This document shows positions 2,819 to 45,269 of a stretch of 64,000 nt of DNA, in pieces. Numbering within the stretch: position 1 is the stretch's first letter; every line of letters begins with the position of its first letter. A model generated the notes under the pieces. That model worked only from the letters and a program-made list of their open reading frames with translations. It was not told the DNA's origin and ran no database searches. Both the position numbers and the translations under genes were made by a program. The DNA is taken from the sequence record MW630116.1. One strand, 5' to 3'. The DNA comes from Escherichia phage vB_EcoM-ZQ3.

Positions 2819-4387
2819 TTAGATGCCTTTTACATATACACGGCGGAAGTAAGCGTTCTTACCAAGACTGTTCAGGATAGACGGCATACCGGACTGGATG
2901 CGAGCACCTGGAGCCTGCAGGGAACTTTCAGCAAACGGGTTAACACCGATACCGTAACGAGTTTTAAAGCCCATTACCGGCTGGAAGTTCTTAGGATCGG
3001 AACCACGCAGTGGGGTAAGTGCAACGTAAGGAGCATAGTAAATACCTGCATCCATTTCGTTAGCGCCTTTGTAACCAACGGTGAAGTAATCCTGTTTAGC
3101 ATACTGGTCGATGTATACGCGGTATTTACCACCAAGTACACCGGCAAATACAGACTTAGTAGTGTCGGTATTAAAACCAGAAGCCAGACCCTGTGCAGCG
3201 TAAGAAATACCAGTATCAACCGAAGCCAGTACGTTAACTACGTTACGGGAAGCGATAATGAAGTTACCTTCACCACGACCGGTTTGACGAGCAATTTCAA
3301 CTGCTTCTTTATCAATCTGGAACAACAGAGCTTTAAAGCTTTCACCGGCCCAACGAGCACCACGGATATCAATCGGGTCCTGGAAGTCAAATACACCAGC
3401 TTTAGAACCAACGATATTAGTCATACCAGATTTACCAACCTGAGCGGAGTAGTTAATCCAGTCAACAACTTCACGGTTGATTTCCAGCATAATTTCAGTA
3501 GCAAGAATACCGCTCAGTTCAGCATCAGCATCCATACCATGTACTGCACGGAGGTCTTGTGCCAATTCGATGGAGTAAGCTGCTTTCAACTGACGAGATT
3601 TAGCTTCAATAACTTGTTTGTCGATACGGAAGCCCATTTCGTTCCACGGGTTGTCGGTAGAACCATTGAAGCCTTCCTGAAGTTCAGCGATAGAAGTAGC
3701 CATACCTTCAGCGATTTCTACCAGTGCACCAGCTTCCATTTGTTTCTTAATTTCAGCATCTAATTTAGTTGCATCGGTAGCGCTAGCATCAATTGTTACT
3801 ACAGCGGAAGCTTGTAGATACACAGTACCGGTGTCCTGGAAGAAGTGAGTATAGATATCACCTACAACGGTTTGTGTGCTAGCAGCCAGAGCTGGGAATT
3901 TCTTAGCAGCACCCTGACCAGAGAACATCGCGTCTGGAGCATACATCGGATGGAAAGCTTCTTTAGCGTCAGCAGCGATAGGGTCTTTACCATATACTGC
4001 ACGGAGAGCAAATACCTGACCGGTAGGGCTGTTCATAGGCTGAACACCACAAATATCAAAAGCGATCAGATTAGGAATAGCACGACGAACCATACCCATA
4101 ACTGCCGGCCCAATTTGGGTTACTGCACCAGAGGTTTGACCTGCTGCGATGTTCTGAGCATTATAACCATGGTCCCCACCAATTTCAGCTTCGGTCAAGA
4201 AAGAACCAAATGCCTGAGCGATTTTCTCGTCTTTATATTCAGGGGATACTTCGAAATCTTTTTCCTGGTTTTCGAAGATTTTAGCGATAATAGCCTGCTT
4301 GCTATTAGCGATTTCCGGCAGGCCTTCACCTTCCAGCAGTTCTTTCCATTTGTCTACGAGCTGAGCTTTAGTTTTGATAGTAGTCAT
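2819..4387 (-). CDS. 23: major capsid protein gp23
   Basis: 522 aa; N-terminal propeptide region followed by HK97-like fold sequence recalled from T4 gp23; synteny 24-23-22. Confidence 0.97.
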   Translation of the reverse strand: MTTIKTKAQLVDKWKELLEGEGLPEIANSKQAIIAKIFENQEKDFEVSPEYKDEKIAQAFGSFLTEAEIGGDHGYNAQNIAAGQTSGAVTQIGPAVMGMVRRAIPNLIAFDICGVQPMNSPTGQVFALRAVYGKDPIAADAKEAFHPMYAPDAMFSGQGAAKKFPALAASTQTVVGDIYTHFFQDTGTVYLQASAVVTIDASATDATKLDAEIKKQMEAGALVEIAEGMATSIAELQEGFNGSTDNPWNEMGFRIDKQVIEAKSRQLKAAYSIELAQDLRAVHGMDADAELSGILATEIMLEINREVVDWINYSAQVGKSGMTNIVGSKAGVFDFQDPIDIRGARWAGESFKALLFQIDKEAVEIARQTGRGEGNFIIASRNVVNVLASVDTGISYAAQGLASGFNTDTTKSVFAGVLGGKYRVYIDQYAKQDYFTVGYKGANEMDAGIYYAPYVALTPLRGSDPKNFQPVMGFKTRYGIGVNPFAESSLQAPGARIQSGMPSILNSLGKNAYFRRVYVKGI

Positions 4388-4404
4388 TTGTGTTAACCTT
4401 TAAA

Positions 4405-5217
4405 TTAGAAACGAGATGCGACTTTCGCATATAAACTTACATTAGAATTCTGTTCTACCTGAGTTGTGGTAGTGTCAACTGCTTCGGCAACAAAATTAAG
4501 ACCGGCAGCGTCATTGTCAACTGTATTTATATTTTCGGTAATAGCGGCTTCTTCTTTAGTAGAACCTTTAACCATTTCTACAATAGCAGTTAACTTAGTA
4601 CCAAATGCGTCAGAATAATCCATACCTTCAACCAGGCCAATAACTTTTTCTTTCTGAGATTCAGTCAGGTCTTTTACGCTTTCATTAATAGCGGTTTCAC
4701 GCTGAACGTAATTGATATATGCATCACGTTTGGTAACTTCTTCGAACAAACGAGCGGTTTCTTCTTTATGTTCGGCCAGCTCTTCTTCCATTTCTGCTAC
4801 AACATCTACAGATTCTTCTGGAACAACAACGTTATGTTCAACAAACAGTTCTTTCAGACCACCAAGCATGGATTCGAACAAATCAGCTTTAATGCCTTTA
4901 TCAACTGCGATTTGGTTTTCTGCGAGCCATTCTTTTGCAAGATGGTCTAGGAATTTAGAAGCTTGTTCAGCCAATTTTTTATCAGCTTTCTCTTCAGCAT
5001 CTTCTTTGGCCTTTTCAACTTCTTCTTCGGCCTTTTCGGCGATGGCTTTGATATGAGATTCAGCCAGTTTGACTGCTTCCTGCTTAACGGTGGCTTCGAA
5101 TACAGTGCTGAAATTAGCTTTAACGTCCGGAGACAGTTCTACTGATTCGAAAACACTATTAAGAGCAACTGAAGTCTCGATGTTTTGAGCTTCTTTCAAA
5201 AGTTGTTCTTTGATCAT
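4405..5217 (-). CDS. 22: prohead core scaffold protein gp22
   Basis: 270 aa, highly acidic/helical, Glu/Lys-rich; position between 21 and 23. Confidence 0.9.
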   Translation of the reverse strand: MIKEQLLKEAQNIETSVALNSVFESVELSPDVKANFSTVFEATVKQEAVKLAESHIKAIAEKAEEEVEKAKEDAEEKADKKLAEQASKFLDHLAKEWLAENQIAVDKGIKADLFESMLGGLKELFVEHNVVVPEESVDVVAEMEEELAEHKEETARLFEEVTKRDAYINYVQRETAINESVKDLTESQKEKVIGLVEGMDYSDAFGTKLTAIVEMVKGSTKEEAAITENINTVDNDAAGLNFVAEAVDTTTTQVEQNSNVSLYAKVASRF

Positions 5218-5898: not shown

Positions 5899-6323
5899 TA
5901 GCTTAATCCTAATGCTTTACGACGTTTAAGAGCTTTTTTACGCTTACGCAAGCCTTTAACTTGGCCTGAAGGGTTAGCTTTTTTAGCTTTAACGACCTTA
6001 CGAGCGATTTGTCTACGTTTTGCTTTAGAAAGACCAGTTGTTTGGAACGCGTTACGTTCACGAGTTTTACGGTCTTTAGTGCGGGTGACTTCACCACGAG
6101 AAGAAACATGTTTAACGATAAACTCATTTAACTGCTCTTCATTAATAATGGAAGCCATTGCAACAGCTAAATCCGTTTCAGTTTCAAGCATGTTCTCGAT
6201 AATAGTATTTATATCGTCAATATCGAGAGCGGAAGACAATGCATCGATTCGGCCCTGTGCTTCAGGAATAAGTGCTTCGACATTTTCGAGTACCAATTCA
6301 TAAGATTCAGGGATAAGATACAT
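5898..6323 (-). CDS. 68: prohead core protein gp68
   Basis: 141 aa, basic C-terminus; position and length as T4 gp68. Confidence 0.8.
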
Positions 6324-6562
6324 TATTCATCGTCCTCATCATCTTCGTCTTCGTCGTCATCGCCTTCATCAGCATTGTCTTCCGAAGCTTTAGCTTTCTT
6401 TTCTTCTTCTTCAGGTTCTTCGCCTTCAATCAAAAATTGAGAAGCGATTTCTGCTTTGCGTGCTTCAATCAAACGAACCGTTTTTTCTGCCATTGCACTT
6501 TCAAAAAACTTTCGAGTAGCAACGAGGTCGTTTGATTTAATAGCTTGAATTAAATCGTCCAT
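6323..6562 (-). CDS. 67: prohead core protein gp67
   Basis: 79 aa with poly-acidic C-terminus ([15 protein letters not shown]); position and length as T4 gp67. Confidence 0.8.
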
Positions 6563-42323: not shown

Positions 42324-42491
42324 ATGTATGAAGGCAAGCCTTTGCTTAAAAGAGTTGATGCTTTAAGTGCTATTGATGCGCTTTATGAAACCATGGTTGT
42401 TAGTCCTAATTTCACTAACAATTTAATCCTTGAGCAATTTATTATGGAATGTAGAGAATATGTCAAAGCCAACCCTATACATGCCAATTAA
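42324..42491 (+). CDS. small ORF ending in conserved FIMECR peptide
   Basis: 55 aa; carries the FIxECR junction motif shared with three other loci; overlaps next gene start. Confidence 0.3.
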   Translation: MYEGKPLLKRVDALSAIDALYETMVVSPNFTNNLILEQFIMECREYVKANPIHAN

Positions 42492-42855
42492 GCCCTGGGC
42501 ATACGAATACAAACGTAAATTAATCCCAAACGAAGTACTATTTGGCCCTATTTTAGCTTTAGCGTTTTTAATCTTTATGATTATAGGAGCTGTTTTAGAT
42601 TCCAATAAAGTTATATCGTCTGATGCAGCGTTTTCATTAATGTTCGTCGCACCACTTATTGTACCATTTTTATTAATGCCTATTAATTGGGCAGGATATT
42701 GGCACCAAGGCCGTCATCACAGAGCTCGAGTTCGTGAGTGGAAAGTTCAGTGCGCAAAAGCCCAAGCTCAGTATGATGAAGCTGTTAAAAAGTATGAATA
42801 CGAAGAAGCTATGGAATTCGTTAAGGAAATAAGATGCAAAAGCCTCAACTCTTAA
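42460..42855 (+). CDS. membrane protein
   Basis: 131 aa from MSKPTLYMP; two hydrophobic helices; basic C-terminus. Confidence 0.5.
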   Translation: MSKPTLYMPIKPWAYEYKRKLIPNEVLFGPILALAFLIFMIIGAVLDSNKVISSDAAFSLMFVAPLIVPFLLMPINWAGYWHQGRHHRARVREWKVQCAKAQAQYDEAVKKYEYEEAMEFVKEIRCKSLNS

Positions 42856-43085: not shown

Positions 43086-43190
43086 CAAGAAAAATAAAAA
43101 GGTTTACGCTTCTCAAATGATTAGTTATAATGAACTCCTAGCTAGACGTGAAAATGAAACAATAGAAAACTTTATTAAGGAATGTAGAAA

Positions 43191-43496
43191 ATGAGTAAGA
43201 TTATTGAAATTAAAGTACCAGAGTTTAATGATGCTAAATCCGCTTCAGATGCAATTTATAAACTTCTGAATCAAGCTGAACGTATCGAAGAAGAAGCAAC
43301 AAAGATCGCAGACCAATATGCCGTATCATTTTCTGTAGGTGATTATGGTAGTGGTCGTACTTATTATCCTAAGGGTGAAATTGTATCCCAGTGGATGAAA
43401 GATGAAATTGAAAATAATGGTGGTGATGTTAAACGTGAAGGTAATGGTTACGTTATTACTGAAGGTGCTTGGGTTTCGTCTTCTTCGATGTGCTAA
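43191..43496 (+). CDS. small protein, paralog 1 of C-terminal GxWVSSSxxC family
   Basis: 101 aa; ends GAWVSSSSMC; RBS AAGGAA. Confidence 0.55.
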   Translation: MSKIIEIKVPEFNDAKSASDAIYKLLNQAERIEEEATKIADQYAVSFSVGDYGSGRTYYPKGEIVSQWMKDEIENNGGDVKREGNGYVITEGAWVSSSSMC

Positions 43497-43505
43497 GGAA
43501 TCATT

Positions 43506-43778
43506 ATGTCTAAAGAACAAACCGAACTGGCTGAAGCCGTAGCAAAAATCTATGCAGCTATTGAGGCTGCCAAAGAAATTGCTGATAAACAAAACACAAC
43601 ATTCGACTTGTATCCGGCTTATGGTATGGGTGGAACCTATCATTCACCCGGACAACTTAAAGCCGATCTTGAACGTTGTACAAAAAACGGCTATGCTGAA
43701 TGGGCTGACGTTTACCAATACGACTACAACCTGAGCCTCGAAACTGGTGGTTGGATTGCATCTTCTCATACTTGCTAA
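43506..43778 (+). CDS. small protein, paralog 2 of C-terminal GxWVSSSxxC family
   Basis: 90 aa; ends GGWIASSHTC; preceded by TGCTAAGGAA..ATG. Confidence 0.55.
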   Translation: MSKEQTELAEAVAKIYAAIEAAKEIADKQNTTFDLYPAYGMGGTYHSPGQLKADLERCTKNGYAEWADVYQYDYNLSLETGGWIASSHTC

Positions 43779-43787
43779 GGAAACCAT

Positions 43788-43985
43788 ATGTCTCGTGAAT
43801 TAGATTGTGCTGTACGTACCGCAGTAGCTGCTCTGGAAAACCTGTTCCAAATTGCAACAGAAGAACGCGAAGAAGTTACATTGTGGATTGAAGATAACGC
43901 AGGTCTGAATCTCCAGGACGCGATCTCATTATCCAATAATAGCATTACTGTTCAAGGCTGGGTATCATCTAGTTATTCTTGCTAA
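43788..43985 (+). CDS. small protein, paralog 3 of C-terminal GxWVSSSxxC family
   Basis: 65 aa; ends QGWVSSSYSC; preceded by TGCTAAGGAA..ATG. Confidence 0.55.
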   Translation: MSRELDCAVRTAVAALENLFQIATEEREEVTLWIEDNAGLNLQDAISLSNNSITVQGWVSSSYSC

Positions 43986-43989
43986 AACA

Positions 43990-44029
43990 GTTTACAACAA
44001 GATAGGGCTATGTTATAGTAGTCCTATCA
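43990..44029 (+). promoter_or_regulatory. early promoter cassette with palindrome
   Basis: GTTTAC then GATAGGGCTA/TAGTCCTATC inverted repeat. Confidence 0.5.
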
Positions 44030-44047
44030 AATTAAATGGAGTCCACA

Positions 44048-44287
44048 ATGATTTATTACGAAAGTATCGGAACCAAAGTGGTTGGTAAAACCATTACTCG
44101 TGAAAAGTTTGCAAAGATATTCGATATGCGTTATAAAAAATCTGAACACAAAGGCATCCGATTCGAAGATGCACATTGTACAATTTGCCCTTATAATGAA
44201 GATATAAATGGTACAATCGTTCCATTGGTAGAGGCTTCACATGACGACCTCTGGGATGAATATAATATCGCATGTCGCGAAATTTAA
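44048..44287 (+). CDS. hypothetical protein
   Basis: 79 aa from MIYYESIG; GGAG RBS 7 nt upstream. Confidence 0.5.
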   Translation: MIYYESIGTKVVGKTITREKFAKIFDMRYKKSEHKGIRFEDAHCTICPYNEDINGTIVPLVEASHDDLWDEYNIACREI

Positions 44288-44312: not shown

Positions 44313-45269
44313 ATGATGTTAGTTATTGGTTCTCGTGCACTTCACTATCACGGTCTTATTGATTCTAACGCTATCAAAAATAGTGACTGGGACTTTATTG
44401 CAGACCAAGGTTCTTGGAATGCATTCAAAAATCAAATGATGGGTGTATATGTTCATCAAGATAACCCTGATGTCCAAGTTTTCAAATGCTTCCATAACGG
44501 ACGCGAAACTCATTTTGAAGCATATATTGTTCCGGCAATCACTAATGTCCGTGAACTAGTCGGTGAACTCACTCCTGAAGATTTCACGTCTTCTTATGAC
44601 CTTTTAAAATACGCCAAGAAAAATTTGACTAAAGACCGTTTGAACGGGTTTTACTGGGCAACTCCTGAGATGTGCCTTGCAATTAAGATGTCTCATCGTT
44701 TCAAGAAAAATAATCCATTCTTTTTAAAGACTATGAACCATATTCAGTATCTTCGTGGTAAAGGTGTTAAACTGAATGATGAACTTACTGAAATTATGCT
44801 GAAACGTCAGAAAGAAACCTTGAACTATGCTCACCCAGTTCTTGACACTTCTAAAAGTGCGTTCTTTAAAGATGACATCTATACATATGACCATGATACT
44901 ATTCATGAAGCCATTGCACTAACAGACCGTCCAGCATATACATTTTATATGAAAGACGGTTCTGAAGTCATGACCTCACGCGAGAAGTTCGAATCGTTAC
45001 CAGAAATGGTCAAATTGGCCGGTGTATATGAAGAATCATGTGTACTAGCATTAGAACGTTCTCAGATTCCTAATGGCTTTGAAATCCATCCTCGTGATAG
45101 TTTTATGATGGCATTAGAAAAGGTCTGTACTTCAATCACATCAGGCTGGTTCCGTGAGTATGCCTGGGAGAACTACAGCAAAGTAGTAAGTATGTACCAA
45201 AGCTTAGGACATGATGATTACGTCAAACGTTTCAAACAAAATTTCCATATGGTAAAACCTTTCAAATAA
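44313..45269 (+). CDS. hypothetical protein with possible Pol-beta-type nucleotidyltransferase N-terminal motif
   Basis: 318 aa; N-terminus VIGSRALHYHGLIDSNAIKNSDWDFIAD fits hGS...D-x-D pattern loosely. Confidence 0.5.
   Translation: MMLVIGSRALHYHGLIDSNAIKNSDWDFIADQGSWNAFKNQMMGVYVHQDNPDVQVFKCFHNGRETHFEAYIVPAITNVRELVGELTPEDFTSSYDLLKYAKKNLTKDRLNGFYWATPEMCLAIKMSHRFKKNNPFFLKTMNHIQYLRGKGVKLNDELTEIMLKRQKETLNYAHPVLDTSKSAFFKDDIYTYDHDTIHEAIALTDRPAYTFYMKDGSEVMTSREKFESLPEMVKLAGVYEESCVLALERSQIPNGFEIHPRDSFMMALEKVCTSITSGWFREYAWENYSKVVSMYQSLGHDDYVKRFKQNFHMVKPFK

Follow-up and report, generated by a model that had tools for sequence, protein, structure and literature searches.

Three consecutive open reading frames (ORF1, ORF2 and ORF3) of Escherichia phage vB_EcoM-ZQ3 (sequence record MW630116.1), which lie within the 64,000-nucleotide stretch of DNA analysed here as a whole (the window), belong to a real, widespread and undescribed phage gene family whose products carry an invariant C-terminal cysteine. 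Together with an uncharacterised nucleotidyltransferase-like enzyme, composed of the DUF7277 and DUF7275 domains, the family makes up a conserved module. The near-obligate linkage to this downstream gene is the most informative fact about the three genes, and it had escaped a preliminary description made from the DNA sequence. The enzyme is encoded in well-studied T4-type phages such as RB69, in Pseudomonas phages of 95-99 kb and in contigs of ~370 kb, and neither partner has been named, solved or published. An invariant terminal cysteine is unusual; here it recurs in up to five or six paralogues and is tied to an enzyme clade with an invariant cysteine of its own (Cys272), a tie suggestive of specific chemistry or docking. 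In our judgement, it is about as likely as not that the small proteins are partners of the enzyme through their tails, probably with chemistry on the tail.

A family of small proteins with a C-terminal cysteine tail

The region of vB_EcoM-ZQ3 in question is 97-98% identical to that of RB69-like T4-type phages of the genus Mosigvirus (for example PNJ-6, ST0 and HX01). Annotated relatives record the equivalents of ORF1-3 as 'hypothetical proteins' (RB69ORF139c through ORF136c), flanked by homologues of the T4 genes e.3 and e.2, with tRNA genes a few kb away. The coordinates, lengths, strand and endings given in the preliminary description are accurate, with cysteine as the last residue in each protein (GAWVSSSSMC, GGWIASSHTC and QGWVSSSYSC) and a TAA stop codon after all three tails, whereas the statement that each protein starts MS(K/R)E fails for ORF1, which starts MSKI. 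The genes and their tails are as follows.

43191..43496, + strand: ORF1, 101 amino acids, isoelectric point (pI) 4.6, family member with a YGSGRTYYP loop and the tail WVSSSSMC.
43470..43493, + strand: codons of the ORF1 tail W-V-S-S-S-S-M-C, as read from the sequence.
43506..43778, + strand: ORF2, 90 amino acids, pI 4.66, with a YGMGGTYH loop and the tail WIASSHTC (codons 43752-43775).
43788..43985, + strand: ORF3, 65 amino acids, pI 4.05, without the YGMGG loop, with the tail WVSSSYSC (codons 43959-43982).

On the sequence evidence, ORF1-3 are real genes. Their codon differences from the 97-98% identical relatives are more often synonymous than non-synonymous, and for ORF3 there are 11 synonymous differences and no non-synonymous ones. 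An ending of the form W-x(1-3)-[SAPT]-S-x(0-3)-C occurs in just 3 of the 513 ORFs of at least 30 amino acids in the window, which are exactly ORF1-3. The three proteins match one another by BLASTP with E = 1e-4 to 3e-4 and match the hidden Markov model of the family with E = 3e-23 (ORF1), 2.4e-24 (ORF2) and 1.3e-11 (ORF3). An AlphaFold2 model of ORF1, built from a 116-sequence alignment, reaches a predicted local distance difference test (pLDDT) score of 86 and contains a long helix (residues 15-43) and a small sheet; the final strand contains W94, and the model is less confident in the tail, at the end of the chain. Together with the 194 protein clusters and the predominance of cysteine endings (145/160) described below, the synonymous excess, the rarity of the ending in the window and the confident ORF1 model refute the idea that the three ORFs are spurious or that they share their ending by coincidence.

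The RB69 reference record differs at the first paralogue: RB69ORF139c is annotated with 71 amino acids, of which ~68 are identical to ORF1 before the protein ends in ...SQWYEK, without the cysteine tail. The missing tail is probably due to a frameshift or sequencing error in the RB69 record.

Searches with single sequences retrieved close relatives only. A family profile built from eight members and searched against 1.84 billion representative proteins retrieved 194 clusters (50% identity) at E <= 1e-3, nearly all of them of 73-120 amino acids and with alignments that reach the last residue. Cysteine is the final residue in 145 of the 160 proteins shorter than 200 amino acids, and a few have one extra residue after it. 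The family consensus consists of an N-terminal helix, the segment F-x-F....YGMGGTYYP, an acidic linker of variable sequence and the ending G-x-W-x-S-S-x-x-C; the mean pI is 4.8, and most members contain a single cysteine. Only four columns of the family alignment are invariant (G55, W94, S97 and C101). We define the family by a C-terminal W-x(1-3)-[SAP]-S-S-x(0-2)-C, a length of ~65-120 amino acids, an acidic pI and a same-strand Cys272-type DUF7277-DUF7275 gene downstream, all of which hold for ORF1-3. The profile also matched some long multi-repeat proteins, which look like unrelated secreted repeat proteins, lack the cysteine tail and were set aside.

Among 161 distinct tails aligned on their terminal cysteine (position 0, Cys in 161/161), tryptophan is found at position -7 in 134, and serine at positions -5, -4 and -3 in 96, 142 and 135, respectively. 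In one further subfamily the YGMGG loop is missing and the motif occurs twice (...DW-x-x-SSC-YGE...IW-x-P-SSC-COOH); because this subfamily and ORF3 both lack the loop, the tail is the only universal feature of the family. The tail is thus kept while the protein bodies diverge, which strongly supports the earlier suggestion that it is a shared functional signal, and the motif is present in relatives across a large family.

The constraint acts on the protein and not on the DNA, because the tail serines use all six codons (TCN 358, AGY 126), the terminal cysteine is encoded by TGC (121) or TGT (40) across the 161 tails, and the stop codons TAA, TGA and TAG all occur. This bears on the junctions between the three genes, which had been described as conserved at the nucleotide level. 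Both junctions do read TGCTAAGGAAnCnnnATG, although the conserved part amounts to the cysteine codon, the stop codon and the Shine-Dalgarno sequence AAGGA, which for ORF2 overlaps the stop codon of ORF1; a nucleotide-level signal at the junctions is ruled out, as the codons vary. Nor does a recent tandem triplication describe the origin of the three genes well, since the paralogues are only 20-31% identical and tails like those of ORF1 and ORF2 recur in other T4-type lineages.

Motifs of the type W-x-S-S-(x)-C also occur internally or repeatedly in the acidic linkers of some members (P0077, P0091, P0128; loci L026-L060), for example as DWESSSEGWESSSEGWVSSSSQC, as DSSGCS repeats or as DW-x-x-SSC-YGE. 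Given these internal occurrences, the motif resembles a short linear motif and is not tied to the end of the chain.

The small proteins have no match in Pfam (116 members searched), NCBIfam or the PDB, and a structure search of BFVD with them returned uncharacterised family members only. Weak matches to Nif11 leaders in 3 of the 116 members (best E = 0.061) are far below threshold. The preliminary description did not recognise the family, and fairly so: the only matches are to two PHROGs of unknown function, namely phrog_899 for ORF1 (1.9e-23) and ORF2 (1.9e-18), with only the C-terminal part of the profile aligned, and phrog_4882 for ORF3 (1.1e-36). None of the names given to members is meaningful, and the family was not found in the literature searched. 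The JGI name 'RraB', attached to one member, was discarded, as the 25 Pfam families matched by most members do not include RraB.

Linkage to the DUF7277-DUF7275 gene and covariation with Cys272

The enzyme gene and the codon of its clade-specific cysteine lie downstream of ORF1-3 in the window.

44313..45269, + strand: gene of the DUF7277-DUF7275 protein, 318 amino acids, homologue of RB69ORF134c (Pfam DUF7275, 7.5e-79; DUF7277, 9.6e-28).
45126..45128, + strand: codon of Cys272, in the segment K-V-C-T-S-I-T-S-G-W, invariant in the cysteine clade and covarying with the small genes.

The first cases of linkage were a 371-kb contig and a 98-kb Pseudomonas phage, in which a small gene lies just upstream of a gene with both domains. 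Among loci fetched via the small family and having enough flank, the enzyme gene lies just downstream on the same strand in 23/23; among loci fetched via the enzyme, 68 of 80 have one to five small genes upstream, a number that rises to 74/80 under looser criteria (alternative start codons plus the tail pattern). When enzymes are grouped into lineages at <60% identity, the small family is found in 18 of 22 groups, with 180 ORFs, of which 177 are upstream and all are on the same strand. The enzyme is the sole conserved neighbour of the small genes, because every other neighbour family is confined to at most 4 of the 22 groups; the linked loci span T4-type phages, 95-99 kb Pseudomonas phages and ~370 kb contigs with no other neighbour in common. 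Dependence runs in one direction: no small gene was seen without the enzyme, and the enzyme also occurs on its own. The gap between the small genes and the enzyme gene has a median of ~420 nucleotides and is at most 120 nucleotides in 18 of 68 loci; fusions of the two genes were not found among the loci surveyed. Arrays of four or five cysteine-tail genes precede the enzyme at some loci (L091, 413-1901; L103/L104, ~3545-4990; L094, 3395-4999), and at L091 (3155-3421), L103 and L104 (both ~6106-6540) one more paralogue follows it.

The module is essentially restricted to phages. The enzyme gene was found in 733 of 50,697 phage records, and in a collection of one genome each from 185,579 bacterial and archaeal species it was present in only six metagenome-assembled contigs. 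A tblastn search of plasmids with the enzyme returned a few homologues, labelled 'hypothetical protein' or unannotated, together with weak chance matches. A few large replicons in the plasmid collection, from the actinobacteria Nocardia and Amycolatopsis and from Brevibacillus, encode C-terminal domains that resemble DUF7275 (E = 9e-18 to 2e-13).

This distribution bears on the possibility that the small proteins act independently of the enzyme, the linkage reflecting co-inheritance in a variable early-gene region. Their cysteine could then bind a metal or a cluster within homo- or hetero-oligomers; alternatively, they could be decoys or inhibitors of host defence proteins. Such roles would suit acidic proteins of an early region (pI 4.05-4.66) that mostly have a single cysteine, and in the window the small genes sit in a promoter-hairpin unit of their own, separate from the enzyme (see below). 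However, the linkage holds over 18 enzyme lineage groups in phages without another common neighbour, and the other enzyme clade has no small genes at any of its 52 loci; we therefore regard independence as decidedly unlikely.

The two enzyme clades differ at one telling position. In the N-terminal domain, G6 S7, D25 and D27 are invariant in alignments of 35 and 85 sequences, and E69 is at least 90% conserved; in the C-terminal domain, conserved residues include K125, S127, H128, K139, H194, D195, H198, E240, E241, E248, R249 and C272. A second clade, of ~260 amino acids, has Ile, Val or Ala at the position of Cys272 and keeps the catalytic-type residues; its members include Gordonia ClubL gp16, Streptomyces Muntaha gp195 and proteins of Vibrio Schizotequatrovirus phages. 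Cys272 covaries with the small genes, which are present at 74 and absent from 6 loci of the Cys272 clade, and present at none of the 52 loci of the Ile/Val/Ala clade. By groups at 60% identity, the same counts are 19 present and 1 absent for Cys272, and 0 present and 22 absent for Ile/Val/Ala. Residues conserved in the cysteine clade only cluster at 271-285, in the segment KVCTSITSGWFREYAW. As an observation only, C-T-S-I-T-S-G-W read backwards resembles the tail W-x-S-S-S-x-x-C, and an antiparallel pairing of the two would set cysteine opposite cysteine.

Covariation of this kind would also be in keeping with small proteins that act as non-covalent regulators or pseudo-substrate inhibitors of the enzyme, in the manner of antitoxins and with no chemistry on the tail. 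The thiolate and carboxylate of the terminal cysteine would plug the His/Asp/Glu (metal) site or pair with Cys272, leaving the enzyme inactive or redirected. The order of a small acidic gene and then a nucleotidyltransferase-like gene does resemble toxin-antitoxin layouts, and the partners have the appearance of additions, because the partner-less clade has the catalytic-type residues too. A single inhibitor would be enough, yet two to five diverged paralogues are the rule, which argues against a simple antidote; the enzyme stands alone in a whole clade and at a few loci of the cysteine clade, which argues against a toxin that needs one; and no PADLOC, AbiE or MenT model matched. Regulation without tail chemistry is unlikely in our view.

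Proposed role of the tail and comparison with known systems

ORF1-3 are best read as small, soluble and acidic proteins that belong to a phage-restricted family and are expressed early, 'early' being taken from the promoter-like context, and their defining element is best read as the exposed C-terminal tail W-x-[SAP]-S-S-x-x-Cys-COOH. If they are partners of the enzyme, this tail would be the handle by which they work with it, as substrates or adaptors. The enzyme combines an N-terminal polymerase-beta-type motif with a C-terminal domain in which many His, Asp and Glu residues are conserved, and the tail would dock near the clade-specific helix bearing Cys272 and/or near the conserved H/D/E site. 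Once docked, it could undergo a reaction, such as nucleotidylylation of one of its serines or formation of a Cys-Cys or Cys-metal link. With their diverged helical bodies, the one to five paralogues may each have a downstream role or target of their own, such that a single enzyme could serve several interchangeable substrates or adaptors. We infer that the tail connects interchangeable small proteins to one enzyme because it is conserved while the bodies diverge, because the copy number varies and the dependence is one-way, and because the enzyme clade concerned has a conserved surface of its own with an invariant cysteine. The catalytic residues kept in the partner-less clade argue for small proteins that supplement the enzyme and against their being essential cofactors.

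The enzymatic part of this proposal starts from a sequence signature. The pattern GS...DxD...E is that of polymerase-beta-type nucleotidyltransferases, and the enzyme sequence contains hG[GS], then [DE]h[DE]h at a distance of 10-20 residues, and a third carboxylate further on. Some GenBank and UniRef records and independent depositors likewise name homologues of the enzyme 'putative nucleotidyltransferase'. Profile searches of the PDB gave no significant match, whether made with the N-terminal domain or with the full-length enzyme (12 and 35 sequences); the best Pfam hint beyond its own two domains was DUF6036 (E = 0.25, in 1 of 12 members), and nothing relevant on DUF7277-DUF7275 or the RB69 counterparts was found in the literature searched.

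The sequence comparisons establish that the proteins form a family, that their tails are constrained as protein, that the family is restricted to phages, that it is almost always linked to the enzyme gene on the same strand and that it covaries with Cys272; the physical interaction, the catalysis on the tail and the biological purpose are what we infer. Several points weigh against a partnership through the tail. In the window, an 83-amino-acid gene, a hairpin and a second promoter-like site lie between the small genes and the enzyme gene, which are probably not on one transcript. Beyond DUF7277 and DUF7275, the enzyme has no significant match in Pfam, NCBIfam, PADLOC or the PDB, and its single-sequence AlphaFold2 model has a pLDDT of 38.7; the term 'nucleotidyltransferase' therefore stands on a short motif and third-party names. 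The covariation with Cys272 reflects few independent events, because it is essentially a split between two clades, and a few loci of the cysteine clade lack small genes. Finally, since the catalytic-looking residues are kept in the partner-less clade, the small proteins appear to be unneeded for the basic reaction.

A more specific version of tail partnership is tentative, and we consider it possible rather than probable: the enzyme may perform a protein modification not yet described on the Ser-Ser-x-x-Cys tail, yielding nucleotide-tagged or cyclised effectors for host takeover or counter-defence. Example chemistries would be O-nucleotidylylation of serine followed by elimination and addition of the cysteine, or a thiol relay from Cys272 to the terminal cysteine. 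A role in host takeover or counter-defence is suggested by the early-gene context alone.

Among known systems, the module would seem most like those that pair a nucleotidyltransferase with a small-protein partner (MntA-HepT, MenAT/AbiE), and the logic of its arrays like that of natural-product precursor clusters or tail carriers. It is not a member of any of the systems compared, because it lacks every defining feature that could be checked. In MntA-HepT, the minimal nucleotidyltransferase/HEPN or type VII toxin-antitoxin system, a polymerase-beta-type enzyme poly-AMPylates a tyrosine of its small partner. The likeness lies in a nucleotidyltransferase(-like) gene next to a small-protein gene, inherited as a two-gene module. 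However, the small proteins described here have no HEPN domain or Rx4-6H motif (neither HEPN nor any other Pfam family was found in the 116 members), are acidic, occur in one to five copies and end in W-x-S-S-x-x-C, and the enzyme has 300-345 amino acids, with an extra DUF7275 domain and no PADLOC or further Pfam match, in a module that is phage-only.

The DUF1814 nucleotidyltransferase toxins of MenAT/AbiE systems are reported to extend tRNA acceptor stems (PMC10435456). The module shares with these systems a small upstream gene followed by a bi-lobed nucleotidyltransferase-like gene, and the enzyme gene described here is often near tRNA or RNA-repair genes. In contrast, the partners here are multi-copy and the enzyme lacks a partner in a whole clade; no match to DUF1814/AbiEii, or to an antitoxin of AbiEi/MenA type, was found in Pfam or PADLOC even at E <= 5. 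As to the neighbourhood itself, loci with nearby tRNA or RNA-repair genes include L003 (689-3478), L112 (1-137), L113 (265-1810) and L111 (4847-6112). Genes for tRNAs are near the enzyme gene in 16 of 60 loci, a count that comes with no background rate, and the RNA-repair neighbours include Rnl1 with PNKP, Rnl2 with a metallophosphoesterase and an ATPase recorded as polynucleotide kinase. This neighbourhood is a hint of an activity related to tRNA or RNA ends.

Arrays of tandem small genes beside one enzyme are also typical of ribosomally made natural products, for example lanthipeptide precursors with Nif11 leaders, in which the leader is conserved and the core is variable. By analogy, the helical part of the small proteins could be a leader that guides the enzyme; a tail serine would be nucleotidylylated and eliminated, the cysteine would add to form a lanthionine-type ring, and the tail might be released. 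The likeness extends to the Ser/Cys-rich C-terminus of several tandem genes with one neighbouring enzyme; the spacing Ser-Ser-(Ser)-x-x-Cys would suit a thioether ring, and the weak Nif11-leader matches mentioned above point the same way, although they are far below threshold. Conservation is reversed here, however, as the C-terminal eight residues (the 'core') are conserved and the N-terminal body (the 'leader') varies. The proteins are predicted to be folded, ORF1 as a 100-amino-acid domain by AlphaFold2, and none of the known modifying enzymes (LanB/C/M/KC, YcaO, radical SAM, LanD), proteases or exporters is conserved among the neighbours. A precursor role is accordingly very improbable.

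Carrier proteins with a functional C-terminal tail offer a further comparison. LysW, with its EDWGE tail, and ThiS/MoaD, with their Gly-Gly tails, are small acidic proteins whose extreme C-terminus is reactive or recognised by a dedicated enzyme, and the small proteins would resemble them in having the C-terminal end as the key element. They differ in that the tail ends in cysteine instead of Glu or Gly-Gly and that the partner is nucleotidyltransferase-like instead of an ATP-grasp or E1-like enzyme; a beta-grasp fold, a C-terminal Gly-Gly and an E1-like adenylating partner were not found. In the GlnD-PII pair, a PII fold with a T-loop tyrosine is uridylylated by an enzyme with nucleotidyltransferase, HD and ACT domains; here neither protein has a matching Pfam family, and ORF3 and one subfamily lack the YGMGG loop that contains the tyrosine. 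Kanamycin nucleotidyltransferase-type enzymes join a nucleotidyltransferase to a helical HEPN-like domain and have no protein partners. The enzyme resembles them in its two domains, of which the first contains GS...DxD and the second has conserved acidic residues, and one depositor named a homologue 'putative antibiotic resistance protein'. It has, however, no significant sequence match to such enzymes; its best match in the PDB, which is not significant (E = 0.76), is to the C-terminal region of RNase L, a HEPN-type KEN domain.

Were the small proteins to prove interchangeable substrates or adaptors of one enzyme, they would represent a new type of modular host-manipulation device in phages, and a function could be assigned to two Pfam DUFs and two PHROGs. 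If the tail is indeed modified, hundreds of phages, RB69 among them, would encode a novel enzyme-substrate system.

Promoter-like sites, hairpin and neighbouring genes in the window

Between and around the members of the module, the window contains four further features.

43103..43131, + strand: T4-early-type promoter-like site (gGTTTACG, 17-nucleotide spacer, TATAAT), 10/12 of consensus, ahead of ORF1.
43991-44019, + strand: second early-promoter-like site, overlapping the hairpin after ORF3.
44001..44028, + strand: hairpin after ORF3, with an RNA fold of -16 kcal/mol (z = -4.45) and no U-run after the stem.
44036..44287, + strand: ORF of 83 amino acids (PHROG 3723) between ORF3 and the enzyme gene, without the tail motif and with its own promoter-like site.

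With a promoter-like site before them and a hairpin after them, ORF1-3 appear to constitute a small early unit in which the ribosome-binding sites are coupled. The record of a relative annotates a T4 middle promoter in the region equivalent to that upstream of ORF1 (L002, 6306-6329), and a terminator is annotated in a relative's record at the place equivalent to the hairpin. At 43991-44028, the -10-like TATAGT falls inside the stem and loop of the hairpin, such that signals for termination and re-initiation would occupy the same bases.

The 83-amino-acid ORF is restricted to a few T4-type lineages and lies outside the conserved core. The BLAST cluster that contains it, together with the two-motif subfamily of small proteins, is found in only 3 of the 22 enzyme lineage groups. 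The ORF carries an H-C-T-I-C-P motif, the second cysteine of which is not kept in Dhakavirus-type homologues. It was considered as a degenerate paralogue of ORF1-3 and rejected, given the absence of the tail motif, its occurrence in three lineage groups only and a BLAST cluster that had been merged via overlapping ORFs.

Finally, a membrane-protein-like ORF lies upstream of the three genes (window 42430-42855). Pfam does not support the label 'sulfurtransferase' that its homologue bears in vB_Eco_F27 (L001, 5659-6054); another record lists it as a hypothetical protein and a homologue of e.4.

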